Positions 36,183 to 63,932 of a stretch of 64,000 nucleotides of DNA are shown here, one piece after another (within the stretch, counting starts at the first letter, position 1; every line of letters starts with the position of its first letter). The translations under genes were made by a program, and so were the position numbers. The DNA lies in contig CAZPCY010000004.1 of NCBI GenBank assembly GCA_964585295.1, positions 1,674 through 65,673 of the forward strand, in the 5' to 3' direction. Below the pieces are notes generated by a model that saw only the letters and a list, made by a program, of their open reading frames with translations, was not told where the DNA came from and did no database searches. This DNA comes from an uncultured Candidatus Poseidoniales archaeon. Lineage in GTDB: Archaea; Thermoplasmatota; Poseidoniia; Poseidoniales; Thalassarchaeaceae.

Positions 36183-37961
36183 TCAGATAGGGGTCTCTCC
36201 CCATGCCAGATAGTGGACATAAGACCCATAGATAATGCCACTGACCTTCAGTGACTCCTCGTTGAACCTGCTCATGTCGTCGAGATAGGTGTGGTATTCC
36301 GATGAGCCGGATCCGTAGCACACAATTGCGTTACCGTATGGCGGTCCTTCAGCGGGGTCGATCTCGAAAACGAACGGTGCGTGATCGCTGTTGTAGGGCA
36401 TCTCCTCGGAATCTAAGGTGCCTATAGAAATTGGATATTTGGATGACAGTTCGGGGTACGAAGCGTTGAATCTCGCCGCTATTGCTCGGATGTGCTCCAT
36501 GTCTTCGGCTCCATTGCCGAACATCCACACCCCGTCACCTCGTTCAGCATCGACGTGATTCATGTCGAGGTTGACGTACATCCTCAGATTCGCAGAAAGG
36601 TCCTCTCGATGCTTCTCAACCCAAGCCTTGGAACCCCAAAGTCCCTCCTCTTCTCCACCCCAAGTGCAGAACTTGAGGGTGTATGCTGGCTCACCCTTGC
36701 TCTCCCAGATTGCTCCCAATTGTTGCCCCAACTCCAGAACGGTGGAGGTTCCGGAGGTGTCGTCAACTGCTCCTGGACCATTGTAGACAGTGTCGTGATG
36801 AGCTCCGAAGATGATCATCTCGGAGGATGCTCCAGGAATTACTCCGCAAACCGTCCTGACATTCCTCGTTCCTTCGTTGTCCATCGATGTGAACATCGAG
36901 AGTCTGGCTGAGCCATTCAGAACCTCATCCATGATTTCGAGACCGGTGCTCTTTGAGACCATGATGAATCCGATGCCAGCCGGCATCGACTCAAATTCGT
37001 TGACTCTGACGCCCTTGAAGAAAGGGACGCAGTCGTCTGGAACGAGAACATCGCAGTTCTGTTGAACGTTGACAAGGATGAGTGCACGTAGGTCGTTCTC
37101 CTGCGCTGCGAGGAACAGATCAGTGTTGCCGGCGTTGTCCCCTTTGCCCCAAACTACGCCGACGCCACCTGAGGCACCGGTCCAATCGGCTTCGGCAGAT
37201 CCGTTTCCGAGGTCGACTAGTGTGATGTCCTCACCGTAACGAATGTCGCTGGAACCAGAGTATCCTTGCAGGACGAAGTCGATTCGGTGCTCGTATTCGG
37301 TGACTGTTCGGCCGAAGTCCGCTCCGCTGCAGGGAGCGACGGTGTTCACTCCGAATATTGGCCCGGGGCTGCAAATGCCGAGGGATGGTTCCGACAGAAT
37401 CTCGAACATAGGAACCTCGTGCTCCTCGATGGTAGCCCCCATTCCGGTCTGCGTTAGGTTAGCCTTGACGAATTCCGCCGTTGCTGTCTCCTCGACGGTT
37501 CCGCTGAGCCTTCCCTTCCACTCGGGATGGCCGAGTTGCACGAGTCCTTCAGCATATCCTCGAGCCCGAGACTCGTCGAAATCGATAAGCTGGTAGTCCG
37601 GCTCACCAGCTAGCCAATCAATGATACTCGGGCCAAGGACAACCGCCCCTCCAGCGGACGCTACGACTACGATCAAAGCAGAGATTAGAACCGGAATCGG
37701 CAGCCCTCGGATGGATTGCACTGGGTCATGCCGCATTCGGGCGAGGAACGAGATCTCGGAGGGAGTTGTTGTGGTATCAGCGCGGTCGTTATCGACGAGA
37801 CTCGCCTCAATCGTTTCTCCACCATCGTATTCGATTAGTCGTTCGACCAACTCGCTCTTCCTTCCTCCAACAGGTAAATCTCGGTCGCGAAGTAGACCCT
37901 TGAGTTCGGTTACCGTCATTCCTTCGTAGGCGTCCTTGCCATCCATCGGTTCGCCCTCCAT
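36183..37961 (-). CDS. Membrane-anchored M28-family Zn aminopeptidase. It has an N-terminal cytoplasmic SAP domain and a PA-like insert.
   Basis: The N-terminus MTVTELKGLLRDRDLPVGGRKSELVERLIEY matches the SAP motif. It is followed by a TM helix (IPVLISALIVVVASAGGAVVLG). The M28 catalytic motifs are FGAHHDTV and AVDDTSGTSTVLELG, ending in a C-terminal EE...H motif. Confidence 0.6.
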   Translation of the reverse strand: MEGEPMDGKDAYEGMTVTELKGLLRDRDLPVGGRKSELVERLIEYDGGETIEASLVDNDRADTTTTPSEISFLARMRHDPVQSIRGLPIPVLISALIVVVASAGGAVVLGPSIIDWLAGEPDYQLIDFDESRARGYAEGLVQLGHPEWKGRLSGTVEETATAEFVKANLTQTGMGATIEEHEVPMFEILSEPSLGICSPGPIFGVNTVAPCSGADFGRTVTEYEHRIDFVLQGYSGSSDIRYGEDITLVDLGNGSAEADWTGASGGVGVVWGKGDNAGNTDLFLAAQENDLRALILVNVQQNCDVLVPDDCVPFFKGVRVNEFESMPAGIGFIMVSKSTGLEIMDEVLNGSARLSMFTSMDNEGTRNVRTVCGVIPGASSEMIIFGAHHDTVYNGPGAVDDTSGTSTVLELGQQLGAIWESKGEPAYTLKFCTWGGEEEGLWGSKAWVEKHREDLSANLRMYVNLDMNHVDAERGDGVWMFGNGAEDMEHIRAIAARFNASYPELSSKYPISIGTLDSEEMPYNSDHAPFVFEIDPAEGPPYGNAIVCYGSGSSEYHTYLDDMSRFNEESLKVSGIIYGSYVHYLAWGETPI

Positions 37962-49145: not shown

Positions 49146-50102
49146 ATGGTGTGGCGAGTCGCACATGATTTCGATCCGTCCCGACCCATCTCCGGTGGGA
49201 GATTCGGCCGGACTTCAGTCCACAGTTCTCTGGAATTCGAGATCTCGGGCGGACATCTGCGAGCCCATCTTGGACCTGCGACCGCAGAGTGGCCTCTCTC
49301 CTCCCTCGCTGCCGTTCATGTCGAAGAAGTGGGGACAAGATTCCCACCTATGTGGTCGATTTGGATTGATCAGGAGAGCCGTTCCTTCGAATTGATGCGA
49401 ACCACGGATCAGATTGACGCGCTCATACTAGGGGAAAGGATCGCAGCCCACGCTGGCGTCCGTTTCGCAGAGCACACTGGACGAGAGGTCGAAGCGGACG
49501 AGCATGGATTGAGCGTCATCCAGCAGATTGCCCGATATCCAGATCGCTGGGATCGTCCACCAAGGACCGAATCGATGCGCGGTAGGGTCGTCGCGAACGA
49601 AGATTCTGTGATTGCACATCTGCCATCCGAGTTGCAGACATCCTCCTTCGTTCTTCTCGGACTGGCTATCGTCTTGGCAATCGCGAGCGGTCCATTGAGT
49701 TACCTAGCTTTCTTTGTCACTCAGCCCGTCCTTGGTATGATCCAACTCTTCTGGATGCCTCTTCTCTCCTTGTTCGTAGTCATACTTTCCGCGGCATGGT
49801 TGAATCAGTTGCATCATAGTGTTGAGTCGAAGCACCGTTTGGTCATTTCGAAGAATGGGGTGGAACTGCGTGGTGCTCTCTTCGGTATACTTCCGATTCC
49901 CGGCACGGTGGTTCATCTCTCCGAACTACGAGACATCGATGCCACCGAACGACGAGGATTGACGATACTCCTAGGTGACCGCCGATTCAACTGCAGCATG
50001 GATGTGCTAGAGGCGGAATGCCTCATCGGAGAGATTGCCAGCTCTCTGGAGGACATCGGAGCCATCCCCCGGCAGATGGCCGCGCCTCCGGAAGAGGAGT
50101 GA
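49146..50102 (+). CDS. Hypothetical protein with a soluble N-terminal domain and 3-4 TM helices.
   Basis: Hydrophobic helices are FVLLGLAIVLAIASGPLSYLAFFV and LFWMPLLSLFVVILSAAW. No family could be assigned. Confidence 0.35.
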   Translation: MVWRVAHDFDPSRPISGGRFGRTSVHSSLEFEISGGHLRAHLGPATAEWPLSSLAAVHVEEVGTRFPPMWSIWIDQESRSFELMRTTDQIDALILGERIAAHAGVRFAEHTGREVEADEHGLSVIQQIARYPDRWDRPPRTESMRGRVVANEDSVIAHLPSELQTSSFVLLGLAIVLAIASGPLSYLAFFVTQPVLGMIQLFWMPLLSLFVVILSAAWLNQLHHSVESKHRLVISKNGVELRGALFGILPIPGTVVHLSELRDIDATERRGLTILLGDRRFNCSMDVLEAECLIGEIASSLEDIGAIPRQMAAPPEEE

Positions 50103-50225
50103 GCCGACCATTTCCTTTCCTAGGGGCCCGGCCGATGTGGGAGAGGAGGAATTCCAAGGTGGCCTCATTCCAAACTCGATAGAGAACGGCATCTTGAGCC
50201 CATCAGCAGCCCTATGCGAAGGTGG

Positions 50226-50309
50226 TGCGGGGAGAGGGATTCGAACCCTCGAACGCTGTTTGCGCCCGGAGCTTAAATCCGGTGCCTTTGACCGCTCGGC
50301 AATCCCCGC
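50226..50309 (-). tRNA. tRNA-Leu (anticodon UAA), type II with a long variable arm.
   Basis: The reverse complement reads GCGGGGA-TT-GCCGAGCGGTCAAAGGC-A-CCGGA-TTTAAGC-TCCGG-(variable arm GCGCAAACAGCGTTC)-GAGGGTTCGAATCCCTC-TCCCCGC-A. The genomically encoded CCA is at 50223-50225. It has the classic Leu/Ser D-arm, a 7-bp acceptor stem and a T-loop of TTCGAAT. Confidence 0.8.
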
Positions 50310-50332
50310 GAGCCGCCATCGTGCGCCGGGCA

Positions 50333-50340
50333 ATGAATAC
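50333..50340 (-). promoter_or_regulatory. Candidate archaeal TATA box (TATTCATT) for tRNA-Leu.
   Basis: This AT-rich octamer is centred about 27 nt upstream of the tRNA 5' end on the minus strand, in otherwise GC-rich sequence. Confidence 0.3.
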
Positions 50341-50409
50341 TGCCCCGAGCGCGGCTTCACTTGCTCACGATTCACAAACGGTAAAACGAGGTTGTCGTCA
50401 CCCACTACC

Positions 50410-53400
50410 GTGCTATCCCCTCAAGTCGGCGGCGGACGGGCGTCCTATGGACGCCATTGGGCGGCTCTGTTCGTCCTCACCATGCTGCTTGCTTCGTGGT
50501 CCGGAGCCTCTGGCCAGATGTCTCCAATGGAGGGGCATCAAGGATCTCTCGATGCTGATTCTACCCGACTGAGCACCTCGTCGCAGTCCTTCCACGACTA
50601 CACGCTCTTCTTAGCCAGATCAAATGGCTCGGCTGGAGGTGATGGTTTCATCACCACCAAGGTGCCCTCCAGTGGCGGCCAAGAAGAGGAACAGGCGGGA
50701 GACACGGATGTGATATTCCGATCACCTGCGATGCTCGAGGATCTGACGATCAAAGGACGCGCGAAGCATGGTTCTTCATCGACCTACTACCTTCCGAGTA
50801 CGTTGTTCATCAAGGCAACCGGTCCAACCAATGCGACTGCCGATTGGAAGATTACCCTGCTGAATGACGGCGACATCGTCGCCGAGGACGATTGGAACAC
50901 TGTCGTCTGTACACCAACCTTCCTCGAACCTTGCGGCTTCGACGAACGTTCGTTTAAGTTGGAGTGGAATGGCCCGGGAGCTAACGGCGACCGGTTCAAT
51001 GTCAGCAAAGGAAACCAGTTGGTTTTGGAGGTCCGTGCCGACCTCGATTGTTCTTCAAACCAACCAGGAGGGCCGTCCGATGCTAGTGGGACAGAGGGGC
51101 GGCAATTCGGTCAACCCGAGTGCGCGGCTTGGATTGCGTACAATGAGATCGATGGAGCAAGCGACCGTTATTCGTTCATCGATGTAGAATCGAATGCTCT
51201 CAAGGAGAGCCTCATTCTTGTGCAGAGATCCGGAGCGGGACCTGGGGAGGATGTCCCCATCACCGAGTGGTTCCCCAATGATGTCCTCTCAGCAAGGACG
51301 ATGCAGTTCCGTTTCCACGTAACCTCATCGTTCGGTAGATTCGATGTCGACACGGTGAAACTGACTGTGATCTCTCCGTCTGGAAGCAAGGACGTCGATC
51401 AGGAGATTGACGGACAGTTGGATGGGGTGGAGGACAATCATTGGGGCATAATCGGTACACATCAGTGGACATACCCGGGGGGTGTCGAATCGGGTGAATA
51501 CGTGGTCCGGTTGGAGGTCACCGATATCCAGGGCAACGTGATCGTGATTGACCATCCGAATCTCCAGATGAGGAGATTCGGTGTCGCTCTCCGTCATGGT
51601 GATGATCGGAGCGTCGAGTATGTCGCTCCTGATCAGCAGACTTCGATTCCGTTGCAACTGCAACACCGAGGCTCAGTTTCCGAATCGGTTGAGGTCGAAT
51701 TGAGGTTGTTGACCTCTCTTGGAAGCGCTTGGTTCAATGAGTTCGATCGAGATGATGGTTACACCTTGGAACGAGGTGGCGCAGTGATGAACCCGATTCT
51801 CACTCTCAGGGCTCCAAGTGACCTCACTGGTTCACCCAACGCAATAGAGATCAAGGCGACCGCTACCGCCATGATTGAGAACATCCCGACCGTTGTCCAT
51901 GAGGATGTCCTCTATCTATCGTTAGAGAAGATCGATGTCTATGCACCCCCAATGGTCAGCATCTGGAACGGCAATCACAGTGAGCAGTACGCGAACAGCA
52001 GCCGCCCGGACGCTTTCGATACCAGCATCCCGAGATACGTGGAGGATGGCGAATTCACAACCTTCCTAATCGAGATCTTCAACACCGGATTCGACAGTGA
52101 CACATTCCGGATAGATGTCCTTGAGAGATCGAAGGCAATCGTGCAGTTGTACGACAACGACACCAACCAGAGAATCCTCGAAGATGAGGGGGACGGGACT
52201 TTCCATACCGCGGAGTTGTCCCGACATACCACAGATGTCTTCAGGTTGCAGATCAAGCCCTCTGCCAATCGAGAGGATGGCGATACCGGTGTCGTACGGC
52301 TTCAAGTCATGAGCAGTGGCAACGGTAGCCACGCCAGCACCACGGAATTCACAGTGCAGCGAACCTTCGGTGTGCGTGCAGTCGTAGTACATGACTGCGA
52401 CGGCGTCCCTCTTGGGTCCGTAAGTGAGGCTGCCTGCATCGTGGATGCAGATGATTCGATTGGGATGCGAATCAAGGTCACGAACAGCGCCACTGCGGGG
52501 ACCGCTTCGACTTGGTGGCGCTTAATCAATCCAGCCGACTTGCCTGAGAATGCAGCCACCGACCCCGCTCTAGTCCAATGGGAATACCGTATAACCGATG
52601 CAGATGGCGATGGGATCGGCCGAGTCTCACTCGCCCCCCAGGAATCGACTGAGGTGATGCTGGACATCTCGCCGAAGCAGGAGATAGAGGTGGGTAATCA
52701 CACCATCCTCCTTAGAATTGAAGAGGACACCACAGACGAAGACAAGGCATACTTCGACCTACCAATCATCGTACAAGTGTCGGCCGATGATCCATCCTTG
52801 CGTGTGGTCCAGGTGTCGAGATCCGAGTCACTCCGGCCCGGTGAGACTCGGGAGGTACAGATGAAGGTGCACAATGATGGCAACTCCCCCTTGCTGGTCC
52901 TCCTCACCGCAACGGTCGAACAGTCAAACTGGGATGCTGATGTGATTGGACCCTCAGGCTCTCCTCTGATTGAGATCGGGCCGTTTGAGGAGGCGGCCTT
53001 CACCCTCCGAATAACCGCGCCAGCGGATGCCAATTCCGGCACCGAGGTTCCAGTGCGCATTGAAGCCGAGCCCTACGGTACCAACACTTCGTTTGAGGAG
53101 GATGATACCGCGATCTTAGATGTCAGTGTGAAGATCGAGATTACCGGCATATCGGAGCGACTGATGAATGAGGTCAAGCATCCGAGGGTGACCACGGTCC
53201 TGTTCGGCATTGGAGCCCTCCTGTTGCTTGTGGCCGCCATGCAGAATCGGGTCAATCGCCGCCGTTGGGCAGAGCACACGGCGGCTCAGGAAGAGTGGTA
53301 CGAGGATGAGGAAATCGAGGAATTCAAGGTTCGGGACGACCCACTGCCTGATCCTATCGGAGAAGAGGATACGGACGATGACGACATTGAGTTAATCGAA

Positions 53401-53424
53401 CTGGTCGACGAAGACACTGATTAG
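50410..53424 (+). CDS. Large secreted surface protein (about 1000 aa). It has CARDB/NEW3-like beta-sandwich repeats, a C-terminal TM anchor and an acidic cytoplasmic tail.
   Basis: The proposed GTG start at 50410 gives a signal peptide: basic residues, then AALFVLTMLLASWSGASG, then Q. It carries many N-x-S/T sequons. CARDB-like segments include ESTEVMLDISPKQEIEVGNHTILLRIEED and GETREVQMKVHNDGNSPLLVLLTA. The TM helix is VTTVLFGIGALLLLVAAM, followed by RRRW and an Asp/Glu-rich tail. The ORF-track start at 50035 runs through the tRNA gene and was rejected. Confidence 0.5.
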   Translation: MLSPQVGGGRASYGRHWAALFVLTMLLASWSGASGQMSPMEGHQGSLDADSTRLSTSSQSFHDYTLFLARSNGSAGGDGFITTKVPSSGGQEEEQAGDTDVIFRSPAMLEDLTIKGRAKHGSSSTYYLPSTLFIKATGPTNATADWKITLLNDGDIVAEDDWNTVVCTPTFLEPCGFDERSFKLEWNGPGANGDRFNVSKGNQLVLEVRADLDCSSNQPGGPSDASGTEGRQFGQPECAAWIAYNEIDGASDRYSFIDVESNALKESLILVQRSGAGPGEDVPITEWFPNDVLSARTMQFRFHVTSSFGRFDVDTVKLTVISPSGSKDVDQEIDGQLDGVEDNHWGIIGTHQWTYPGGVESGEYVVRLEVTDIQGNVIVIDHPNLQMRRFGVALRHGDDRSVEYVAPDQQTSIPLQLQHRGSVSESVEVELRLLTSLGSAWFNEFDRDDGYTLERGGAVMNPILTLRAPSDLTGSPNAIEIKATATAMIENIPTVVHEDVLYLSLEKIDVYAPPMVSIWNGNHSEQYANSSRPDAFDTSIPRYVEDGEFTTFLIEIFNTGFDSDTFRIDVLERSKAIVQLYDNDTNQRILEDEGDGTFHTAELSRHTTDVFRLQIKPSANREDGDTGVVRLQVMSSGNGSHASTTEFTVQRTFGVRAVVVHDCDGVPLGSVSEAACIVDADDSIGMRIKVTNSATAGTASTWWRLINPADLPENAATDPALVQWEYRITDADGDGIGRVSLAPQESTEVMLDISPKQEIEVGNHTILLRIEEDTTDEDKAYFDLPIIVQVSADDPSLRVVQVSRSESLRPGETREVQMKVHNDGNSPLLVLLTATVEQSNWDADVIGPSGSPLIEIGPFEEAAFTLRITAPADANSGTEVPVRIEAEPYGTNTSFEEDDTAILDVSVKIEITGISERLMNEVKHPRVTTVLFGIGALLLLVAAMQNRVNRRRWAEHTAAQEEWYEDEEIEEFKVRDDPLPDPIGEEDTDDDDIELIELVDEDTD

Positions 53425-54347
53425 AAGTCGTCCCACGCCATTCCAGACCTCAGCTTGGGTCCTGTGTCGCCCCTAGCGGCCTCCCTACTTGCCATTCTTC
53501 TCAGATCGGCATTTTCCTCTTCCTTGAACAATCCCCGCAAAGTGTTCCAAGAAATCGTCAAGGCGAACCAGCCAATCACGATGGTCGGGAACCATAGGAT
53601 CACCCAATCTGGTACCTCCACATCGGCTGCCGGTTCGTCCGAATCATCACCGGCCTCGAGATCGATTCGATCTTCTAGCCCCTCGAGGAAGGCGGTTTGA
53701 TTGGTCATCACTATGACCGCCCAAGCCAAGACTAGGAGCGCACCAATCAGATACTTACCCCTTCTAATCCACTTCGGGTCCGGATAGGGAGAATCCACCC
53801 ATATCAGCTCGATCTCACGGATTTTCTCTGATTTCTTGTGCAGCTTCAGTACGGTTCTGCGTCGCACATTGCTTAGCATCCTAGCCTCATCTCCGGCGGA
53901 CCAGAGGAAGACATCGAATCGCTTGTTTCGGTGGTTGGTACCGACCGCGACCATGCGAGGTTGCTCTGCGATCATGGGCTTGCCTCCTAGGAATCCCCAC
54001 TTGTGGATTCTAACTATGGCCCCGTGTTCATTCAGAGCAACCCTACTAGAACGTCTGCTATACTTCCAGGCAGCGGCCCACATCAAAGGACCGGCAGCAA
54101 TGTACTGGCCAGCCTCAACCTCTTCGGAGAAGCCGAATATGTAGGCTTGGATGCCGGCGACAACCAGCATGATTCCAACAGGGAATCCAAGCAGTGCCAA
54201 GCGAGCCTCAAGGACCGTGCTTCCAATCCGCTTGGCTCCTTTCCTCTGCTGCTTGGAGGCAACACGCACTCCTACTCCCAAATCGTGGTTCAACTTCAAT
54301 CCTGTGCTGTATCGCAGCCCTATGAAAGCGCCTCCTATGGCCATCAA
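53421..54347 (-). CDS. Hypothetical membrane protein with a PH-like (bPH/DUF304-type) segment.
   Basis: It has two N-terminal TM helices. A soluble domain (VALNEHGAIVRIHKWGFLGGKPMIAEQPRMVAVG...FDVFLWS) is followed by two more TM helices and an acidic C-terminus. Confidence 0.35.
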   Translation of the reverse strand: MMAIGGAFIGLRYSTGLKLNHDLGVGVRVASKQQRKGAKRIGSTVLEARLALLGFPVGIMLVVAGIQAYIFGFSEEVEAGQYIAAGPLMWAAAWKYSRRSSRVALNEHGAIVRIHKWGFLGGKPMIAEQPRMVAVGTNHRNKRFDVFLWSAGDEARMLSNVRRRTVLKLHKKSEKIREIELIWVDSPYPDPKWIRRGKYLIGALLVLAWAVIVMTNQTAFLEGLEDRIDLEAGDDSDEPAADVEVPDWVILWFPTIVIGWFALTISWNTLRGLFKEEENADLRRMASREAARGDTGPKLRSGMAWDDF

Positions 54348-54367
54348 TCCAATCGCCTAGATTCGCA

Positions 54368-57300
54368 TTGCAATCACCATCCCGGCTCACTTTCCCGCGC
54401 GTGAGGGCGCGCGCATGTCCGAACATCGCTCCATTCTCCTTAAGGTGCGGATTGACCGCCTCGCGGTTGATTCACATGTCGCAGACATGCACGGCCTCCT
54501 GGTCCGCCGACCCACTCCGACCGCACCGCCAGAGTTCAATCACACTGGCCCTGCTGCTGCTGCTGTCTTCTCTGGCCGGCTTGCAATATGCATCTTGGAA
54601 GGCTCTCGCTAGCACTGATCAGGATGGTGACGGACTAAGTTATGGATTGGAATTCCTACTGAACACCCAGCCTCAGGACTGGGATAGCGACAACGACGAA
54701 CTTCCTGATGGGTGGGAGTGGCTCCATGGTCTCGATCCACTGGATGGGTCGACGCTCACGAGCAACGGCGCTCAGGGTGACCCCGACGGGGACGGACTGT
54801 CGAACAAGGATGAGTACCAATACGCCATGCCGAACAATTGGGACTCTACCTCGACGCCCAACGAACTCGACAACGGAGTATGGTGGAATGGCACGGTCCC
54901 GACCCGTAACTGGGATGAGGAGAGTGCAATGCAGGCGAGCCAGGGCACAGGAACCGATGGCAGTGACGAGGATCCGATGGGGAACATCTGCGCAGATGGC
55001 ATGGACAACGACCGCGATGGCGCCGTCGATGCAGCGGATTCGGATGGTGATGGCGACGCGGATTGCTCCAGTGACGACGATGATGGAGATGGTTTGATCG
55101 ACGAGGACCCGGATGGTTACGATACGGACAACGATGGCATGAACGATGGCTGGGAGGTCGCGAACAATCTCGACCCTCGATCCCCCTCAAATCAGGATGG
55201 AGCCTCGGGTGATCCGGACGGCGATGGATTGGTGAATCTCTTCGAATACGTCAATCCGAGTTGGACCACACAGAACCAAGGCGTACCCTACTACATGCCC
55301 GGCCACCCATCTCAGCAGCGGACCGAGACCGAATCACCCTGCAACCCAGTCCTAGGCCTAGGCCCTGGCGGTTGCCAGTCTCTGACCGCCGAGGTGGATG
55401 GTGTCACATCGACGAATCCGCAGAGTGCCGACACCGATGGAGACGGATTGAACGACAGCTATGAGGCACTGACTCTCCGGACCGATCCCACCGCCTCTGA
55501 CACGGACAGCGATGGCGTCTCTGACGGCGTCGAGGTGAACGGTGCCTATGGCAATCCTCCGCAGGCGAGTGACCCTAGGGACAACAACACCGATGACGAT
55601 CCATTCGACGACGGCGATGAGGACATCGACGGCGATGGCGTTGTCGATGCAAACGAGACGGATCCCACTAGAAGAGAGGATTCTGGAGACTATGATGGTG
55701 ACGGCATAGAGAATTGGGAGGAGAACCTGACTTGCACGCTCTGGAATATCGCCGACACCGACTACGGTGGAGTAAGTGATGGTCTGGAGCGCCAGAACCT
55801 CCATCAGACCGACCCCTGTCTCTCGACAGTGGACTTTTCTACCAACCACATCTCATATTCCTCACTCAGTCAAACCCTACTGGTCCAGAACGTGACTGGC
55901 TTCGGCGTAGGATGGAATGATTGGAGGCCCACCGCACCTCCGAGACAAGGATTTTACAACCTATCGAACGGATCCCTAATCCCCTTCACATACTCGTATA
56001 CCGAGATTGTTGGAAGTGAGCATAGAATTGTCGGAGTGACGGTACCCCCTCCAGGTTCCACCACCGAGGTTCTCTCCAAGAACGGCTCATGGTGCTGGAA
56101 TGCGAACATCCTCGCTGCGAACAACGTCGCTTGGTGCGATGACGACTACTACGACCACGACTTGGATGGCCTTGCCGATTGGGAGGAGCAGGCAGGAACC
56201 TGGGGTTTCACCAGTGATCCTTTCCTTTGGGATACTGATGGCGACACCGTCAACGATCTTGATGAGATTATGAATGGCACCGATCCAAACGAGCCATGTG
56301 ACAACAATCGCGACAGCGATGGCGACGGATTGAACGATTATTTCGAGAACAACACTGGCTGCCCGATGATCTATGTTCCTGGTATGGGTGGCAATGGCTC
56401 GTTAGACACCTATGTTACGGATTATCTGACGCAGGACACGGACAATGGTGGGGTGGCGGACGGTCAGGAATATCTGGATGGGACCAATCCGCAGAACGAT
56501 GCGAGCGACGATCAGAATCCGGCCGACACAGACGGAGACGGGATCCCGGATGCCGTCGAAAACAACACAGGTACGGACTGGCGTAATCCCGATACCGATG
56601 GCGGTGGGATGACTGATTACGAGGAGTGCCCGCCACAGTTCTGGATGTTCAACTGCCAAGGGAGCGGTCAGGATCCGTGGGATCCGACCGATGACATCAG
56701 GCCAACCGACATCGTGTTCTGGGCCAATAACACGACGAACGGCACGGATCCCTTCCAGTCACACTTTTGGCGTCAATACACATATGATGAATACACTGGA
56801 GTCGCCTTCGGCGTAAACCAGTCTTTGGTTACTTGGAACGAGATGTCCTCTGGATTCACTGACACGCAGTGGTTGGCAGATCCATCCTTCCACAATGTAA
56901 CGAACACCTGGCAGTTGACCTTCAATCAGACAGTGAACCCTAGTTCGAATCTTCCGAATCCCTACGCAGCAACTCAATTCATGATGTGGGCAGATCCATC
57001 TGCCGGGTTGAACCATTCCAATTGGACTCATGACATCAGGGTTTCCGATGTGCCAATAGATACCGCGATGATTGATTCACCTGGAATTTTCTTCCCAGAT
57101 CAGGTAAGGCAGAATTCGACCGCATTTCAGGGATCCTCATATTCAACTGAAGTGCCGTCATCCTTCTACGACCCCAACAACCCCGAATCGTACGCGCTCA
57201 ATGTGACGGATGCGATAATCTCCGAGGCTGGAGCGATTAGCGCTTGGGAAAAGATGGAAGCACTCGTCACTTGGATAAGGGAGGGCAACAACACCACCGA

Positions 57301-60300
57301 GCCTAAACTGAACCACGATGGTAGCGTGATGCCGGTCGGACTCGACCTGACGACGTTCATGCTGCACGACTCGCTTGAGGGTACTTGCAACGAATGGTCC
57401 ATCACGCTAACCATGATGGCTCGGCTCGCTGGTCTGCCAGCTAGACAGGTCTCAGGTTACTCCAGTGGGGCCTGGCACGGCACTGGATTCCAGGTGCTCG
57501 GATTGCACCATCAGACATGGACCGAAGTACATCTGCAGACCAATCCAGCGCAGGGCAACCGAGACATGGGTTGGGTCCCCTTCGATTCCTGTCCTCCTGC
57601 AGAGGAAGTGGACATCATCGACTCTGTATGGGGCCCGGACATAATCGATCGGAACATGTCAGGAGACCAAATATTCCTCAATGGCACCTTAATCTTCACT
57701 GAGAACCAGAGCGTCGCCGTCGGAGTCGTGCTGCAACTGTATCTAGTACCTCCTGAAGAGGCGGCGAACATCCCTGGTCTGGCCGCCACCGGAGGTCGGC
57801 TGGTGGGGACCGGTATCTCAGCGAGCAATGGGACCTTCTCGCTGAAGGGATTCGCCAATGAGCCGATACGAACCGGATTCGGACGCCTCGTGGTCCAGAC
57901 CGTAGCTAGCGGCTATGTCGGGCAAGGGGGTATCGCAAATACCAGTTGGTTGGTCAATGTGACAGACGATACAAACCTGACCATCGAGGCACCGATGCCG
58001 GTCGCGGCACCAATCATCGGCGCAGGGGCAAACACCACGCTGAGCGGCCGTCTTCGATTGGAGATGCTGCCTTGGATAGACATGCCGACCTTCGACACCC
58101 ACACGGTATTCCTGAACTTCACCTCGAACATCAGCGGACCCATATCCATCCAAACTGTGGTCCAGCCCACTGGTTCCTTCGAGTTCTACCTTAGCCTCGA
58201 TGAGAACGAGACCCAAGGACTCAGGCCTGCGACCATCGAATTCCCCGGCTGGCATGAGAGCGATCTCAACAATGCTTCTACCCCAATCTACCACGCTCGT
58301 CCGTCGAATCTCTCATTCGAACTCAATGTAACGGCCGCTCCGGACTTGACCGTCACCGTGGAAGGGAATGGTGCGAACTCATCCCTACTATCAGTCGATG
58401 AACCAATCCATCTGAATGGAACCGTCCTTTCCAGAGGGCATAATCCGGTACCTGTTTCAGGAACCTTGACCTTGCAGATGCGAGAGAACGGCACAGGTCT
58501 TGGATTCGTGAACATCACCACATTCACGCTTGGCCCCGGAAATTGGACCGGCAATCCAGGGAACTTCTCCATCAATTGGGTGATGGCGGCCAACCAGACC
58601 CCGATTCCACCCGGTTTCATCGATCTCCGTGTTGTGTTCGAGGCTGCGAACATTCCCGCGACCGACGAGGAGAACCTGATTGGCTATGGAATCCGAAGCA
58701 TCGTCATGTTCGAGTACTCACTCAGTCCGGTGTTGCGAGGTCAGGGTACCACGGTGTTCGTCAGTATGCTCGATCACACTGGCAGCCAGACGACATCATT
58801 CAACGGAACATATGTCGTCGAGGTGGATGGAACGATGGTGAATACCACTGTTGATCCAGTCGAGGAGTTCTTCGACGTATCTTGGATACCTGATGCCAAC
58901 ACCGCGGCAGGCGACTACTCCTGGTGGATTAACTACAGTGGTTCGCAGTGGTACAAGCCCAACTCTTCCAACAGCAGTCTGAGAATTCAGGGTTTGGCGG
59001 ACATATCTATCATCATCGCTCAGGATTGGACTCACATAGGTCAACAGACGTATGCGACCGGTGACATCCGGGATTCAGTACTGGGCACCATCATCCTGCT
59101 CAACGAGAGTCAGGTCACCTTGCAAGTCGAGCGGCCGGGGAGTGGTCCGAGTGGACCAGGGGGGGAACCACCTCCTCCAGAGATTACCATGCTCGGTCAA
59201 GGATGGGTGGATTCCCTGAATGGGACCTACAACATCTCCTATACGATTCCCAGCCATATCGGTTCAGGCGTCTACAATCTCACCGTGTCCTGCGATTTCC
59301 AACTAGTAGCACCGACAGGTGGGCCGTACTATGAGATGAATGAATTGGGGTTCACCGATGTTGGCATACAGAGCGAGGCGAAGCTAATCAGTGAGATATC
59401 CTCCACTGTCGTCGTGGTCGGTAATCAACTACTTGTCAATGTCAGTGCCCAAGATGTCGCTGACTCATCTAACTTGACCAACGCAGCATTGGAGTTGGTC
59501 TGGGATTGGGATGGTCCTGACAACGGGACGCTATCCACAGCGAATGTCGGAGTAGACGGCTGGGCAAGATTCTCTCCGACAATCGACATAGATGTCGAAC
59601 CTGGTTGGTACGATGTACGGATATTCATGGCAGATGATGTGTCGGATACGCTGTCGACGCCGAATGCAGGACGTTGGCTGGGCAACGAAACATTCGTCAA
59701 TGTGACCGTCCAAGTCCCGAGTAACATTTCTCTTGATCCGATGCCCACGTTCGTGACTGCTGGCACCTCGTTCATGCTCACCGGTCAGGTTCTAGATGAT
59801 GTGAACAACAGCCGTCCATTCAACGGAACTGTCGAGGTGACTGTGTTCTTCCTGAATGACAGCAGCGAGGTGCTGATAGATTCCTTCACCACGACTCCGA
59901 ATGGATCGTTTAACATCAGCGTCCCGACCGATCCGAATGGCGATGGTGTGACCAGCGGCGACAAGACTGTCGTGGTAAGCGTGCTGAACGACACCAATCC
60001 ATTCTATCTGACCAGTACTGGGACTGGGATGATTCTCGTGAAGGGGGTGACGGAATTCACCGATGTGAGCCCGCTGATTCCGATTATAGTCGAGCGCGGA
60101 GGCAATGTCACCTTTGGTGGCATGTTGCGAGAGGCCAGCGATGGCGACCGACTGCTGTCGAACATGACCATCGCGGGATTGTTCCACGACACTTGGATGA
60201 ATGAGTCCATGACGAACTCGACCGGCGATGTTGACTTCTCATTCTCCATTCCGAACAGCCATCCGCTAGGTCAGGTCGAACTTACCCTGTTCTTCAACGG

Positions 60301-63300
60301 CACCTATCCGTTGCATTCCACCAATCGAACCTTCAGTACCGTGACCGTACGATCTTTGACGGTATTGGTCATCAATCCTATCAGCGACAATCCGGTCGCG
60401 GGTGGATGGCTGAACGTCACGGGGACTCTATTGAGTGATAATGGATCAGGTATCATAGATCGCAACGGCAATGCTCTCTTGCCTTCGCTGACCTTCCGAA
60501 TTGATGGATTCGAAGACACCTTCACAGCTCAGAACGGCACCGTTCTAGCTGATGGATCGTGGAGAGCGAATCTAATCCTAGATCATGATTTCCCGCGCGG
60601 CACCCATAATCTAACCGCGATTTACACCCCAACGGTCAACGATTACGCGACAGCGAACAACATCACGACATTCGACAGTAGAGGATACTCCGTGCTGACA
60701 TTCACGAATCCGCTCGACCTCGACCCGGATCGTAGGACAATCCGTGGCGAAAACATCACGATCGATGTTCTTCTGGTAGACAATTCCGGTGCGCCGATAG
60801 AGAACGCTTCGATCATTCCCACCATAATCGGACATACGGTCTCTGACATGATGACGGATGCGAACGGCACGGCGACACTCACCTTCACGGTCGATCAGAT
60901 GCAGGCACCCGGAGCTCTCTCGATTGACATATCCTTCGCGGGCATTCCGGGAACTACCGGTGTACAGGGGGATGCGACGTTCACTCGCGTCGTAATCCTC
61001 GCGCCCACCAACCTGATTATCGACACCATAGAGGGTGATCTGATTGCTGGCCAGACGGTGATTGTGAATGGTACCCTGCTCGATGAGCATGGCCAGCCAC
61101 TGCTAAACGAGACCGGATTAGCGGCTGGTGGAATAATCCATCTCGCCATCGATGGTCAGGATACGGGAAGTGTGACCATCGCCATGTCGAATGCGACGAC
61201 AGGGTCCTTCTCCATGGTCCACACGCTGCCATTCGACACCACGCCTGGTCCACACATCGCTACGGTGACCTTCCTAGGCGGTTTCATTTGGGTCGATCCG
61301 ATGGGTTCCGGCGATTCTCTGAATCCCGAGTACTATCTCGGCTCAGTCTCGAATGCGACATTCAACGTCTCCGTACCAACTTCGATAGAGATAACTAGCG
61401 ATGCTGGCGAGGTCGAACGCAACGATTTGTTCCGAGTCGATGGGATACTGTTGGACATTGTAGACCGTCCGCTGGACAATGCAACACTCTCCGTGACCAT
61501 GAATGGAGTGTACCTCACCGATGTGAAGACCGATGAATTCGGCATCTTCTCAGTCTATTATCCGGTTCCAGCAAACATGTCTCTAGGTCCGCAACTGGTG
61601 GAAATCAGCTTCGCAGGAGACGAGTTCCATCTGTCGAGCCTCGGTCAGACTACATTCGATGTGTATGCCCCCACCATCCTGACGATTGATGTTCCGCAAG
61701 TGGCAGCCGTTGGCGACTTGGTCACCTTCCAGGGAACCGTTCGGGACAACCTTCCAATGGGATGGTTGGCCAATCACACCGTAGAGATTCGCGTCAATGA
61801 GACATTGCTGGATACGGTAGTCACGGATTCCAATGGCAGTTGGTCGTATGAATGGACGATTCCACAATGGCTCGACATCTCCAACCACACAGTGGAGGTA
61901 TTCGCTCCGGCTACCACAGATGGTTGGTACCGAGAAGGCCGAGCCAACGATACGATTCGCGTCGTCCACAACGCTGGATTGGACCTCGATGCCGATGGAG
62001 GAGGCCACTCCACCCGTGGTGGTGATTGGAATATTTCCGGAAGGTTGTACGATGCCGATGTCGTGGGAACTCCACCCTTGGTCGGCAGAACTGTGACGAT
62101 TACTGTTGATGGAAACACCGGTGTCACCGTAACCACAGATGACGAAGGTCGCTTCCAAGTGCTCTTGCCGGTCGACTCTTCCGCCTCACGCGGGAGTCAT
62201 CTCATAGAAGCGGCATACGCTGGCGAGGAGGATTGGGTCGCCGCTTCCGCTTCCGTCACTGTGTATGCGTGGGCTGATGTCGCTCTGGAGGTCCTAGATA
62301 TCGCCTCGCCGGTGATTAGGAGCGACTCCGCCCACCCGATTGAGATTACTGGCCGAATCGTCGAAGTCGGTGGATCTGGCAATGTGCTCGCCAACCTCAA
62401 TCTCCAAGTGTCTTGGGAGGGCGAGGAGAAGGTGTTCGCGACTGATTGGGACAATGCCACCGGTCACTGGACCATCCGCTTCACAGCGAACGCTCCCATG
62501 GCAGAGGATGAAACCATTCTAATCACAGTCGAAGAGAATCCGTCTTCGTACCTGCATTCTGCATCAGACGGCGCCAAGGTCTTCGTCATGGTTCCAGCCG
62601 CATTCTCTTTCGATCCTCTGCATATCGATCTTGACTCACGGATCATCGAGAGCATTGTCAGGGTGACTTCGGCCGACACTGGCGAGCCGCTGGAAAATGT
62701 CTCGATTGAGGCACGCTTGATGAACGAGACAACCTCGATTGCTCAGTATGGTAGAATGACGGGAGATGACGGCGTTTTCACCTATTCCTTCGCCGCCGTC
62801 GAGCCACTTCCTCCCTTCTCAGACCAAGCAGCATGGGGGCGGTTGTCGATAGCGTTCAACTCGACCTCACCGCTACTCGCCGCTGATGACCGTGCACGGT
62901 TGGAGACGTCACCACCGGTGATTGCCACCTATGAGGTCGCCGAGAATGTGGCGAGTGGCCCCTCCACCCCCGCGATGGCTGGAGGCCTACTCCTTCTGGC
63001 CGGATTGGCTGCTGCACTTCTGCACATGCGCAAGCGCCGCACTGCGGTCGAGGCACTCGACGATACATTCGCTTACTCGGCCGAGTTGCTGATGGCAATG
63101 GATGAGATACGTGAAGCGATTTTCCAATGCTATGAGAGCCTATGTGTGACCTTGATGGAACACGGTTTCCTAAGGCGTGATTTCGAGACGGTTCGAGAAT
63201 TCGAACTTGCAATCCGTGAGGCTCTTCCGATTAGAGAGCAAGCACTCGTCGCTCTGGACCGGGTGTTCGAAGAGGCACGTTACTCCAGTCACGAACTCGG

Positions 63301-63397
63301 CGACCAACACAGAAATGCTGCGCAGCAGGCAATCGAAGGGGTGAGATCCGAGATTGCCTCTCTTGAGGCACAGGGACAATCCATACCTCAGCGATGA
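54368..63397 (+). CDS. Giant (3009 aa) surface protein. It combines a signal peptide, thrombospondin-type-3-like Ca-binding repeats, a transglutaminase-like Cys-His-Asp core, long arrays of Ig-like repeats, a TM helix and a DUF4129-like cytoplasmic domain.
   Basis: The signal is LTLALLLLLSSLAGLQYA. There are at least 15 D-x-D-x-D-G-x-x-D-x-x-[DE] repeats, for example DQDGDGLSYGLE, GDPDGDGLSNKDEY and DTDSDGVSDGVE. The transglutaminase-like core is GTCNEWSITLTMMARLAGLPARQVSGY ... HQTWTEVHL ... GWVPFDSC. N-x-S/T sequons are extremely dense throughout. The C-terminal TM helix is GGLLLLAGLAAALLHMRKRR. The tail contains FLRRDFETVREFELAIREAL, resembling the DUF4129 'ETPREY' motif that typically follows transglutaminase-like membrane proteins. 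Confidence 0.7.
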   Translation: MQSPSRLTFPRVRARACPNIAPFSLRCGLTASRLIHMSQTCTASWSADPLRPHRQSSITLALLLLLSSLAGLQYASWKALASTDQDGDGLSYGLEFLLNTQPQDWDSDNDELPDGWEWLHGLDPLDGSTLTSNGAQGDPDGDGLSNKDEYQYAMPNNWDSTSTPNELDNGVWWNGTVPTRNWDEESAMQASQGTGTDGSDEDPMGNICADGMDNDRDGAVDAADSDGDGDADCSSDDDDGDGLIDEDPDGYDTDNDGMNDGWEVANNLDPRSPSNQDGASGDPDGDGLVNLFEYVNPSWTTQNQGVPYYMPGHPSQQRTETESPCNPVLGLGPGGCQSLTAEVDGVTSTNPQSADTDGDGLNDSYEALTLRTDPTASDTDSDGVSDGVEVNGAYGNPPQASDPRDNNTDDDPFDDGDEDIDGDGVVDANETDPTRREDSGDYDGDGIENWEENLTCTLWNIADTDYGGVSDGLERQNLHQTDPCLSTVDFSTNHISYSSLSQTLLVQNVTGFGVGWNDWRPTAPPRQGFYNLSNGSLIPFTYSYTEIVGSEHRIVGVTVPPPGSTTEVLSKNGSWCWNANILAANNVAWCDDDYYDHDLDGLADWEEQAGTWGFTSDPFLWDTDGDTVNDLDEIMNGTDPNEPCDNNRDSDGDGLNDYFENNTGCPMIYVPGMGGNGSLDTYVTDYLTQDTDNGGVADGQEYLDGTNPQNDASDDQNPADTDGDGIPDAVENNTGTDWRNPDTDGGGMTDYEECPPQFWMFNCQGSGQDPWDPTDDIRPTDIVFWANNTTNGTDPFQSHFWRQYTYDEYTGVAFGVNQSLVTWNEMSSGFTDTQWLADPSFHNVTNTWQLTFNQTVNPSSNLPNPYAATQFMMWADPSAGLNHSNWTHDIRVSDVPIDTAMIDSPGIFFPDQVRQNSTAFQGSSYSTEVPSSFYDPNNPESYALNVTDAIISEAGAISAWEKMEALVTWIREGNNTTEPKLNHDGSVMPVGLDLTTFMLHDSLEGTCNEWSITLTMMARLAGLPARQVSGYSSGAWHGTGFQVLGLHHQTWTEVHLQTNPAQGNRDMGWVPFDSCPPAEEVDIIDSVWGPDIIDRNMSGDQIFLNGTLIFTENQSVAVGVVLQLYLVPPEEAANIPGLAATGGRLVGTGISASNGTFSLKGFANEPIRTGFGRLVVQTVASGYVGQGGIANTSWLVNVTDDTNLTIEAPMPVAAPIIGAGANTTLSGRLRLEMLPWIDMPTFDTHTVFLNFTSNISGPISIQTVVQPTGSFEFYLSLDENETQGLRPATIEFPGWHESDLNNASTPIYHARPSNLSFELNVTAAPDLTVTVEGNGANSSLLSVDEPIHLNGTVLSRGHNPVPVSGTLTLQMRENGTGLGFVNITTFTLGPGNWTGNPGNFSINWVMAANQTPIPPGFIDLRVVFEAANIPATDEENLIGYGIRSIVMFEYSLSPVLRGQGTTVFVSMLDHTGSQTTSFNGTYVVEVDGTMVNTTVDPVEEFFDVSWIPDANTAAGDYSWWINYSGSQWYKPNSSNSSLRIQGLADISIIIAQDWTHIGQQTYATGDIRDSVLGTIILLNESQVTLQVERPGSGPSGPGGEPPPPEITMLGQGWVDSLNGTYNISYTIPSHIGSGVYNLTVSCDFQLVAPTGGPYYEMNELGFTDVGIQSEAKLISEISSTVVVVGNQLLVNVSAQDVADSSNLTNAALELVWDWDGPDNGTLSTANVGVDGWARFSPTIDIDVEPGWYDVRIFMADDVSDTLSTPNAGRWLGNETFVNVTVQVPSNISLDPMPTFVTAGTSFMLTGQVLDDVNNSRPFNGTVEVTVFFLNDSSEVLIDSFTTTPNGSFNISVPTDPNGDGVTSGDKTVVVSVLNDTNPFYLTSTGTGMILVKGVTEFTDVSPLIPIIVERGGNVTFGGMLREASDGDRLLSNMTIAGLFHDTWMNESMTNSTGDVDFSFSIPNSHPLGQVELTLFFNGTYPLHSTNRTFSTVTVRSLTVLVINPISDNPVAGGWLNVTGTLLSDNGSGIIDRNGNALLPSLTFRIDGFEDTFTAQNGTVLADGSWRANLILDHDFPRGTHNLTAIYTPTVNDYATANNITTFDSRGYSVLTFTNPLDLDPDRRTIRGENITIDVLLVDNSGAPIENASIIPTIIGHTVSDMMTDANGTATLTFTVDQMQAPGALSIDISFAGIPGTTGVQGDATFTRVVILAPTNLIIDTIEGDLIAGQTVIVNGTLLDEHGQPLLNETGLAAGGIIHLAIDGQDTGSVTIAMSNATTGSFSMVHTLPFDTTPGPHIATVTFLGGFIWVDPMGSGDSLNPEYYLGSVSNATFNVSVPTSIEITSDAGEVERNDLFRVDGILLDIVDRPLDNATLSVTMNGVYLTDVKTDEFGIFSVYYPVPANMSLGPQLVEISFAGDEFHLSSLGQTTFDVYAPTILTIDVPQVAAVGDLVTFQGTVRDNLPMGWLANHTVEIRVNETLLDTVVTDSNGSWSYEWTIPQWLDISNHTVEVFAPATTDGWYREGRANDTIRVVHNAGLDLDADGGGHSTRGGDWNISGRLYDADVVGTPPLVGRTVTITVDGNTGVTVTTDDEGRFQVLLPVDSSASRGSHLIEAAYAGEEDWVAASASVTVYAWADVALEVLDIASPVIRSDSAHPIEITGRIVEVGGSGNVLANLNLQVSWEGEEKVFATDWDNATGHWTIRFTANAPMAEDETILITVEENPSSYLHSASDGAKVFVMVPAAFSFDPLHIDLDSRIIESIVRVTSADTGEPLENVSIEARLMNETTSIAQYGRMTGDDGVFTYSFAAVEPLPPFSDQAAWGRLSIAFNSTSPLLAADDRARLETSPPVIATYEVAENVASGPSTPAMAGGLLLLAGLAAALLHMRKRRTAVEALDDTFAYSAELLMAMDEIREAIFQCYESLCVTLMEHGFLRRDFETVREFELAIREALPIREQALVALDRVFEEARYSSHELGDQHRNAAQQAIEGVRSEIASLEAQGQSIPQR

Positions 63398-63410: not shown

Positions 63411-63932
63411 CTATCCTATTCGGATGTTCAGGTTTCCATCCTCAACCCATGCGGCTTCGATTGGTCTCCCTCCGCCGATTCGAGCCACCCTCTCGAAGCG
63501 TGAACCGACACCATCGATTGCCAATCGCATGACCGTCTCACCGCTGATTATTCCGACGTTTATGGAGATTCCATCCTTCGACACTCCGGATAACGGGATG
63601 CGCAAAGTCCCATCTGAACTAACACCTTCCAGATGGGCTGCCATCACCTCCATGGTCGGTATCGATGCAATCCATTCTCTAGTCGCTTCGACCATACCTG
63701 CCGTTTGACCCAGCATCGAGATGTGAGCATCTCTGACCTCTACCAGTGCTGAGTTATCGGAGAGATTCGAAATGAATCGGGCATGTTCGATCTCCGCCGT
63801 CGCCTCTAGACCGATCGATCTCCCGTCGATGGTCGAGCCTTGTTCGCCTCCATCTCCATCTTCAGGATTGGATGTTGGCAAGCCTATCGGATCGGAGTCG
63901 TGGACCGGAATCGGGCGCCAACCTGCATCCAT
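63411..63932 (-). CDS. Hypothetical protein (173 aa).
   Basis: This ORF is convergent with the giant gene. It has an acidic N-terminus. No family could be assigned. Confidence 0.3.
   Translation of the reverse strand: MDAGWRPIPVHDSDPIGLPTSNPEDGDGGEQGSTIDGRSIGLEATAEIEHARFISNLSDNSALVEVRDAHISMLGQTAGMVEATREWIASIPTMEVMAAHLEGVSSDGTLRIPLSGVSKDGISINVGIISGETVMRLAIDGVGSRFERVARIGGGRPIEAAWVEDGNLNIRIG

Follow-up and report, generated by a model that had tools for sequence, protein, structure and literature searches.

The window analysed here is a 64,000-nucleotide stretch of DNA from a Marine Group II archaeon (Poseidoniales/Thalassarchaeaceae), in which a tRNA-Leu(UAA) gene is followed by three protein-coding genes (termed gene 1, gene 2 and the giant), as summarized in Table 1. 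Marine Group II belongs to the most abundant archaeal groups of surface oceans; to our knowledge, it has no cultured member and no characterized cell envelope. The three open reading frames reported in a first-pass annotation of the sequence are real and lie at about the positions given there, and the tRNA gene upstream of them was recovered by ARAGORN. The GTG start of gene 1 agrees with the N-termini of its orthologues and has a TATA-like box 30 nt ahead of it, which likewise backs this start; a longer version of this frame (1095/1129 aa) overlaps the tRNA gene. Alignment of 19 upstream regions revealed GAACGCTTTAAC in the relatives at the position equivalent to this box, which may serve as the promoter of gene 1; the mRNA is probably leaderless. 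The giant, annotated at first with 3009 residues, is shorter by our reading of its start codon, because the longer frame would run through a conserved non-coding element and the orthologues start at the equivalent ATG.

Table 1. Features of the locus, with positions counted from the first nucleotide of the window.
Feature	Position	Strand	Remarks
tRNA-Leu(UAA)	50223..50309	-	found by ARAGORN; 100 nt upstream of gene 1
TATA-like box GGTAAAAC of gene 1	50380..50387	+	alignment of 19 upstream regions, coordinate check
Gene 1	50410..53424	+	1004 aa; predicted type-I membrane ectoprotein
Gene 2	53421..54344	-	307 aa; lineage-specific, apparent insertion outside the conserved pair
GC-rich palindrome CCCGCGCGTGAGGGCGCGCGC	54394..54414		just upstream of the 28-nt element
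Near-invariant 28-nt element GTCCGAACNNCGCTCCATTYNNCTTAAG	54417..54444	+	upstream of the giant
Giant	54476..63397	+	2973 aa from ATG 54476; predicted type-I membrane glycoprotein
Acidic TSP3-like repeat region of the giant	54611..56635	+	aa 46-720; at least 13 DxDxDG loops
Transglutaminase-like core of the giant	57248..57586	+	aa 925-1037
Ig-like stalk of the giant	57596..62971	+	aa 1041-2832; divergent; 73 of 98 sequons
C-terminal TM helix of the giant	62972..63028	+	aa 2833-2851
DUF4129 domain of the giant	63128..63337	+	aa 2885-2954; predicted cytoplasmic

The gene 1 product comprises a signal peptide (about residues 14-36), an ectodomain of some nine β-sandwich domains with a NEW3-like domain at residues 809-886, and a transmembrane (TM) helix (residues 927-945), followed by a juxtamembrane NRRRW motif and an acidic tail (residues 964-1004, 54% Asp plus Glu) that bears a conserved DDDDIEL motif. 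In most orthologues the motif DD[DE]IELV is the actual C-terminus, and the mean column identity among orthologues reaches 70-79%, including the TM helix, NRRRW and the DD(D/E)IEL tail motif. The AlphaFold2 model of gene 1 is all β-sandwich. The label CARDB-like, which gene 1 had been given, found no match to CARDB (PF07705) at E <= 0.1; what the domain search did return was NEW3 (PF10633) at 22.8 bits, below the cut-off of 24.4, and PF10633 is on record for most orthologues. A search for solved relatives yielded none by sequence, and Foldseek only generic multi-Ig structures at a TM-score near 0.1. The gene 1 product also shows no detectable homology to the stalk of the giant (hhalign probability 0.2%).

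The giant is built from a distal array of TSP3-like repeats, a transglutaminase-like core, a long Ig-like stalk, a single TM helix and a DUF4129 domain. The repeat region holds most of the best-conserved stretches of the ectodomain, with 59-78% identity at residues 61-420 and 541-720 and a dip to 34-36% at residues 421-540. The best-conserved stretch of the whole protein is DUF4129 (31 bits against a cut-off of 24.8), with 79% identity and no sequons. Both large proteins have the single C-terminal TM helix and the charged tail that were described for them, acidic in gene 1 and DUF4129 in the giant. Both had also been called sequon-dense, which is correct for the giant (98 N-glycosylation sequons, z = 12.6 against shuffles) but not for gene 1 (9 sequons, z = 1.5). 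The sequons of the giant number 4 per 100 residues in the stalk versus zero in the tail, which supports a cytoplasmic placement of the latter. The surface localization proposed for the two large proteins is supported by their signal sequences, C-terminal anchors, ectodomain-confined sequons, and Ig-like and TSP3 domains. A search for PGF-CTERM/archaeosortase signals found none; the only hit, to PVV-CTERM at 17.4 bits, stays below its cut-off of 27.

The architecture of the giant varies little among relatives. The 27 aligned orthologues span 2868-3000 residues and align nearly without gaps, with a mean identity of 47%. Each of them has 74-93 sequons, and of the 98 sequons in the window's giant, 34 are kept in more than 80% of the orthologues. 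Within the population, 12 synonymous and 4 non-synonymous SNPs indicate that the giant is under purifying selection. A search with the DUF4129 tail returned only short orthologue fragments and no other lineages.

The transglutaminase domain reported for the giant is well supported as a fold, with Transglut_core (PF01841) scoring 41 bits (cut-off 23, E = 2.6e-10) and the same family on record for the orthologues. The best sequence match in the PDB is the periplasmic domain of TgpA (6g49, profile E = 3.6e-6). TgpA (PA2873) of Pseudomonas aeruginosa and TgpA-like proteins share with the giant an external transglutaminase core, a TM segment and a cytoplasmic DUF4129. TgpA has 668 residues according to a TMHMM legend (688 in the text of the same paper), begins with a five-TM DUF3488 module and retains the full Cys-His-Asp triad; its periplasmic domain is active in vitro and the protein is needed for viability (PMC3507681). 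By contrast, the giant has only a signal sequence at its N-terminus, lacks the catalytic His, and adds about 675 residues of TSP3 repeats and an Ig-like stalk of about 1800 residues to a total of 2973 residues. DUF3488 gave no match in the giant, which has one N-terminal hydrophobic segment only.

Following TgpA, the giant might be an active extracellular transglutaminase or cysteine protease that cross-links or trims envelope proteins, including the gene 1 product, and so remodels the cell surface. The shared topology, the above-threshold domain match, the invariant Cys971 and the proven activity of TgpA all speak for such an enzyme; however, the Cys-His-Asp triad required for activity is incomplete. 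The canonical His position is occupied by Gln1013 in the window and by Thr/Ser in 27 of 27 orthologues, under both TgpA-based and PNGase-based alignments, and the orthologues have Glu or Gln in place of Asp1037. Moreover, the core is among the less conserved parts of the protein (35-47% identity), and a second invariant cysteine, Cys1039, two residues past the Asp position, suggests a structural disulfide. Since neither the giant of the window nor any of the 27 aligned orthologues has the catalytic His, the giant is probably not an active transglutaminase, and the plain label 'transglutaminase' is overstated. We regard an active enzyme of the TgpA type as quite improbable, while some non-canonical form of catalysis could still be based on the invariant Cys971. 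A literature search found no paper linking Marine Group II with transglutaminase, or DUF4129 with transglutaminase.

The locus had been interpreted as the most accessory-like part of the window, a three-gene surface-remodelling or attachment cassette integrated beside the tRNA-Leu gene as a hotspot of integration and hypervariability. Three adjoining membrane or surface genes downstream of a tRNA do fit such a cassette, as do gene 2 and a 318-aa ORF, the second lineage-specific small membrane gene in the neighbourhood. To place the locus among its relatives, we surveyed 80 GTDB species-representative loci, 75 of which extend upstream of gene 1. The order E1a/LipA/SDR/FolB, gene 1, giant was found in all 75, and the same holds in metagenome contigs; the giant lies directly 3' of gene 1 in every related locus with downstream sequence. 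In total, 159 genomes encode a relative of gene 1. The tRNA-Leu gene, which sits between FolB and gene 1, has the same position and strand in 47 of 48 related loci checked. It is therefore not an integration hotspot but part of a conserved backbone of FolB, tRNA and gene 1.

Marks of a tRNA-linked island are variable presence among relatives, a shift in GC, an integrase and flanking direct repeats, and none of them was seen. Gene 1 and the giant are syntenic across the 80 species-representative genomes wherever the flanks reach. The GC content of 0.535-0.570 across the locus, against 0.549-0.592 in the rest of the window, is flat, so that the suggested compositional check revealed no deviation. 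No integrase came up when the large ORFs on either side of the locus were scanned with Pfam, no repeats were found around gene 2, and the neighbouring genes are housekeeping genes. For gene 1 and the giant, the synteny survey already refutes the cassette. The first-pass annotation had itself named synteny in relatives as the finding that would count against it, and its central accessory claims fail on that point.

Gene 2, which is present only in the window's own population and missing in both sister species, stands apart from this pair. Its product consists of two TM helices, a PH-like β-sandwich (residues 98-183) and two further TM helices. The PH-like domain proposed for it stands at the level of fold only: a search for bPH_2 (PF03703) gave no Pfam or NCBIfam match, whereas the AlphaFold2 model, modest in quality (pLDDT 62 overall, 70-87 in the PH-like region), shows a PH-like topology. 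The top Foldseek matches are PH domains, all with E above 0.03, among them the bacterial PH proteins 3b77, 3dcx and 3hsa and the membrane-anchored PH protein EROS. Bacterial bPH_2/YdbS-like proteins likewise have two TM helices followed by a small helix-capped β-sandwich; compared to these, gene 2 adds two TM helices after the domain and lacks the family match.

The gene 2 family is very rare. A word-indexed search returned gene 2 alone, an exhaustive HMMER search added three remote relatives, and a metagenome scan re-found one already known contig and nothing more. These few remote homologues lie elsewhere in unrelated contexts, and the one with readable surroundings sits among unrelated housekeeping genes. 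A viral or mobile origin of gene 2 was considered and rejected, as it has no relatives in IMG/VR, no PHROG matches and no flanking repeats, and its GC3 matches that of its neighbours and the host. From this distribution, gene 2 appears to be a recent, unrelated insertion between a conserved pair, and the proposal that the three genes function as a joint system does not hold. Since the large pair is core and occupies the same place in every Marine Group IIb (MGIIb) genome examined, and gene 2 is an apparent latecomer, there is no accessory island at the tRNA. A three-gene cassette integrated beside the tRNA is scarcely credible, and the locus serves as a reminder that large surface genes adjoining a tRNA need not form an island.

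The reading we favour, with moderate confidence, is that the locus consists of two family-wide conserved core cell-envelope genes of MGIIb, with a species-specific and functionally unrelated gene 2 wedged between them. Archaeal S-layer and envelope glycoproteins typically possess a signal peptide, an ectodomain rich in β-sandwiches and N-glycosylation sites, one C-terminal TM anchor and the status of a core gene. The pair has the same overall features as those with a C-terminal anchor; a search against solved S-layer proteins gave no sequence or specific fold match to the locus proteins. The data establish conservation, synteny, topology features, domain content and the loss of the catalytic His; beyond them, we propose that a signal sequence at the N-terminus directs export of both large proteins, with one C-terminal helix as their membrane anchor. 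The giant would present a Ca2+-binding TSP3 head as its outermost part; next inward would follow the transglutaminase-fold module without catalytic His, most likely in a binding or structural role, and below it the heavily N-glycosylated stalk of about 1800 residues. The cytoplasmic DUF4129 would link the protein to something inside the cell. The gene 1 product would be a shorter rod whose conserved acidic tail docks in the cytoplasm, and the two proteins may interact physically, although their apparently separate promoters and the lack of detectable homology count against this. Most likely, the pair would form or organize a canopy of glycoproteins with a fixed height, in the manner of an S-layer-like layer or a glycocalyx.

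A rival reading makes the giant, perhaps together with gene 1, primarily an adhesin that would attach to particles, phytoplankton or other cells via its Ca2+-dependent TSP3 head, the stalk serving as a spacer only. TSP3 repeats and similarity to CglD and MtsD are classically tied to adhesion, and these Myxococcus proteins, like the giant, carry acidic DxDxDG Ca-binding TSP3 arrays on the cell surface. The giant has at least 13 such predicted loops and gives a CglD-like match in NCBIfam as well as an MtsD-like match; however, the CglD-like match (72.8 bits, far under the equivalog cut-off of 400) covers the repeats only, a partial region, and the giant has no detected VWA domain, is predicted to be TM-anchored rather than a lipoprotein, and comes from an archaeon. 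Poseidoniales 'thrombospondin' genes have been read as adhesion factors (Rinke et al. 2019, PMC6461757; PMC8821943), and a flotillin gene lies in the same window. Against this, the 27 orthologues have a fixed domain order and length and do not vary in repeat number. Every locus inspected has the gene, as a single copy, also in lineages that the literature describes as free-living, and conservation peaks in a cytoplasmic stretch rather than in the distal head alone. An adhesin proper is thus a rather unlikely primary role, one that overlaps the envelope reading because conservation is compatible with adhesion; a variable adhesin set is probably not what the pair represents.

As a pair present in every MGIIb genome examined, a giant ectoprotein predicted to be glycosylated and to bind Ca2+ together with its predicted partner offers a concrete envelope candidate, as well as antibody or proteomic markers. 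The labels 'transglutaminase' and 'thrombospondin/adhesion' need care when applied to such genes, given the degenerate active site and the rigidly conserved architecture.

The two conserved genes appear to be transcribed separately, each from its own promoter. Upstream of the giant, the 28-nt element is present as a single copy in all 89 pair-bearing sequences (88 loci and the window), exactly in 83 and with one mismatch in 6, and nowhere else in 1.76 Mb. Of the two sister species, both without gene 2, one (L006) has a clear version of the adjacent palindrome CCCGCGCGTGAGGGCGCGCGC and the other (L005) a degenerate one. A structured RNA was also considered for the 28-nt element and rejected: it has no Rfam match, compensatory hairpins noted by eye were unsupported, and RNAalifold gave no consensus pairs on 32 sequences. 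The parts seen of a Red Sea transcription start site paper make no mention of the locus. We infer that the 28-nt element GTCCGAACNNCGCTCCATTYNNCTTAAG is a dedicated promoter of the giant, with a TATA-like CTTAAG, together with an upstream operator. A more specific scheme, in which the pair supplies the main S-layer-like components of the MGIIb envelope, is coupled to the cell interior via DUF4129 and the gene 1 tail motif and is switched by a dedicated regulator of the 28-nt element, seems unlikely to us as a whole. As a putative cis-regulatory site, the element is unusually well conserved for archaea and could serve to find its regulator.

Gene 1, which encodes the ectoprotein, and the giant surface-protein gene that follows it are core genes, and the tRNA-Leu(UAA) preceding them is part of the stable backbone. 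More than 160 clusters of gene 1 homologues were found, the named ones labelled Candidatus Thalassarchaeum, Thermoplasmatota or Methanobacteriota archaeon; these labels assign the window to Marine Group II (Poseidoniales), within the family Thalassarchaeaceae (MGIIb). Among GTDB species representatives, a scan identified relatives of gene 1 in 159 genomes. Housekeeping genes lie upstream (2-oxoacid dehydrogenase E1a/E1b/E2/E3, LplA, LipA, an SDR and FolB), with CPSase, ArgRS, aRF1 and LysRS farther away, and contigs bearing orthologues keep the gene order of the window. In a tblastn survey of 80 species-representative loci and metagenome contigs, the order E1a(-), LipA(-), SDR(+), FolB(+), gene 1(+), giant(+) is kept in 75 of the 80 representative loci, those reaching upstream. 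Wherever a locus includes downstream DNA, the giant gene (~8.9 kb where complete) lies immediately after gene 1, and both products share 43-50% identity with those of the window.

The first-pass annotation had correctly described three ORFs here, and had read them as an accessory surface cluster at the tRNA-Leu, to be regarded as core if syntenic in relatives. As the pair is fixed in order and the tRNA keeps its place and orientation in 47 of the 48 loci checked, the two genes are core by that annotation's own measure, and the three-gene island is refuted; GC content, a further check for an accessory signal, is flat across the window. Two small ORFs flank the pair. The 318-aa ORF, which has no Pfam or PHROG match, is restricted to the window's clade (L005, L006 and L007) and is missing from other relatives covering the region, being the second lineage-specific small membrane gene of the neighbourhood beside gene 2. 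The 173-aa ORF is without known domains; seven relatives carry weak homologues (25-31% identity) at the corresponding site, with a 122-aa gene call there in L002, and beyond this position relatives have a DEAD_2/XPD-type helicase.

Features of the gene 1-giant region and other loci of the window
Feature	Position	Strand	Remark
PMT_2-type glycosyltransferase gene	1246-3015	-	
1029-aa protein gene	4664-7753	-	~10 TM segments
Flotillin gene	9803-11332	+	Band_7 + Flot
M28 peptidase gene	36183-37961	-	N-terminal SAP domain
318-aa ORF	49146-50102	+	between FolB and tRNA-Leu; two adjacent TM helices
tRNA-Leu(UAA)	50223-50309	-	sole tRNA in region
Gene 1	50410-53424	+	1004 aa, best placement
Gene 2	53421-54344	-	307 aa
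Palindrome CCCGCGCGTGAGGGCGCGCGC	54394-54414		GC-rich; abuts 28-nt element
28-nt element GTCCGAACNNCGCTCCATTYNNCTTAAG	54417-54444	+	between gene 1 stop and giant start; also L002 12951-12978, L016 12922-12949
Giant gene	54476-63397	+	2973 aa
173-aa ORF	63411-63932	-	convergent on giant's stop

The maximal ORF of gene 1, from 50035, crosses the tRNA. In an alignment, the GTG at 50410 coincides with the start of a 69%-identical orthologue; a TATA-like box lies 30 nt upstream of it, with GAACGCTTTAAC at the equivalent site in relatives, and this suggests a leaderless mRNA. Public gene calls on contigs L007 and L008 give a 1095-aa product (window 50137-53424) overlapping the opposite-strand tRNA; orthologue alignment and the putative promoter position support the 1004-aa version instead. 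The giant had been proposed as 3009 aa, the length given by a TTG start, but is shortened here to start at an ATG, since the 36 extra codons span a conserved non-coding element and orthologues begin at the equivalent ATG.

The gene 1 product has, as previously described, a single C-terminal TM helix in the hydropathy scan and an acidic tail (54% Asp+Glu). It is conserved over its full length (70-79% mean column identity among orthologues), including the TM helix, a juxtamembrane NRRRW motif and a DD(D/E)IEL motif, which forms the C-terminus (...IELV) in most orthologues; in the window's clade a short acidic stretch extends beyond it. The sequon density assigned to the protein did not hold, its nine N-X-S/T sequons giving z = 1.5 against shuffles. 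As for the CARDB-like label, the Pfam scan gave no CARDB match and a NEW3 score of 22.8 bits, under the 24.4 cut-off. The AF2 model (pLDDT 66) presents a string of about nine β-sandwiches and a TM helix, for which Foldseek retrieved generic multi-Ig proteins and nothing else; no sequence-related solved structure was found.

The giant likewise bears one C-terminal TM helix, followed by a DUF4129-type tail (31.2 bits, cut-off 24.8), and is sequon-dense (98 sites, z = 12.6 against shuffles; 74-93 in orthologues), both as first annotated. The stalk has as many as 4 sequons per 100 aa and the predicted cytoplasmic tail none, a distribution that fits the predicted topology. Pfam also matched Transglut_core (41 bits, cut-off 23) and Big_3_5/CarboxypepD_reg, with weak Ig-like matches scattered along the stalk. 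Orthologues from 27 species (2868-3000 aa) are colinear and almost gapless at 47% mean identity, the best-conserved parts being the acidic N-terminal region (59-78%, aa 61-420 and 541-720) and the cytoplasmic DUF4129 (79%); within-population SNPs comprise 12 synonymous and 4 non-synonymous changes. The N-terminal region contains at least 13 DxDxDG Ca-binding TSP3-like loops and a partial CglD-like match (72.8 bits). Together, these data favour core envelope glycoproteins of fixed architecture as the reading of the pair. The main rival, that the giant is an adhesin, is less likely but plausible; it draws on the literature, where 'thrombospondin' genes of Poseidoniales are interpreted as adhesion factors (PMC6461757), and we infer that those genes correspond to the giant.

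Among solved structures, the P. aeruginosa TgpA periplasmic domain (6g49) is the closest in sequence, and both proteins place an outside TGase core before a TM helix and DUF4129. The TgpA domain is enzymatically active (PMC3507681). When the giant is aligned with its orthologues and, by profile, with TgpA, Cys971 is invariant, and the His of the TgpA H-A-W motif aligns with Gln1013 in the window and Thr/Ser in 27 of 27 orthologues; a PNGase-based alternative alignment likewise has no His at this site. The Asp position is Asp in the window only and Glu or Gln in orthologues. Of cysteines the core contains just two; both are invariant, and the second lies two residues past the Asp position. Thus an active transglutaminase is unlikely, and the fold would be non-catalytic, possibly disulfide-locked. 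The giant thereby adds to the TgpA-type TGase/DUF4129 membrane proteins a new, greatly elaborated and probably catalytically dead form, with a conserved and uncharacterised partner, gene 1, in a family of uncultured archaea of ecological importance.

The existence of a family speaks for gene 2 being a real gene, yet it is an interloper rather than a component of a three-gene system. It is confined to contigs of the window's own population (99-100% identity) and missing from every related species surveyed, including two sister species (gene 1 identity 66-69%), where gene 1 and the giant lie ~125-180 bp apart. Among 1.84 billion representatives, an exhaustive HMMER search retrieved only three remote relatives (24-32% identity over aa 31-214) that share the layout of two TM, soluble domain, two TM; a metagenome scan added nothing new. 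The only homologue with usable context has RNR, fumarase and further unrelated genes as neighbours. The GC3 of gene 2 equals that of its neighbours, and it carries no viral or mobile signature. Against L008, of the same population (6.5 kb), all four SNPs fall inside gene 2 (53421-54347; two synonymous, two non-synonymous) and none in gene 1 or the giant's start. Hydropathy indicates three hydrophobic segments, to which the AF2 model (pLDDT 62; about 70-87 over aa 31-180) adds a fourth helix, with a β-sandwich capped by a helix. The earlier PH-like label is plausible but weakly supported: the top Foldseek matches are nearly all PH-like (EROS, SSRP1/Pob3 and the bacterial PH proteins 3b77, 3dcx and 3hsa), but none reached E < 0.03, and Pfam gave no match.

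The insertion of gene 2 lies upstream of the 28-nt element and leaves it intact. This element occurs once in each of 89 pair-bearing sequences (88 loci and the window; 83 exact, six with one mismatch), near-invariant although the flanking proteins are ~45% identical, and nowhere else in 1.76 Mb with five mismatches allowed. An invariant GCC follows after 13-15 nt, then an SD-like purine run and the start codon. The element is probably a dedicated promoter of the giant (TATA-like CTTAAG) with an upstream operator; a structured RNA is probably not the case, as there is no Rfam match and no consensus fold. The adjacent palindrome is clear in L006 and degenerate in L005, both sister species without gene 2, and was not seen in more distant relatives.

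Elsewhere in the window, the 1029-aa protein near the PMT_2-type glycosyltransferase has no Pfam match and no WWDxG motif, and might belong to the glycosylation machinery. The M28 peptidase shows an unusual combination with its SAP domain. The window also encodes a flotillin, discussed with the 'thrombospondin' genes as a cell-aggregation trait in the MGII literature.
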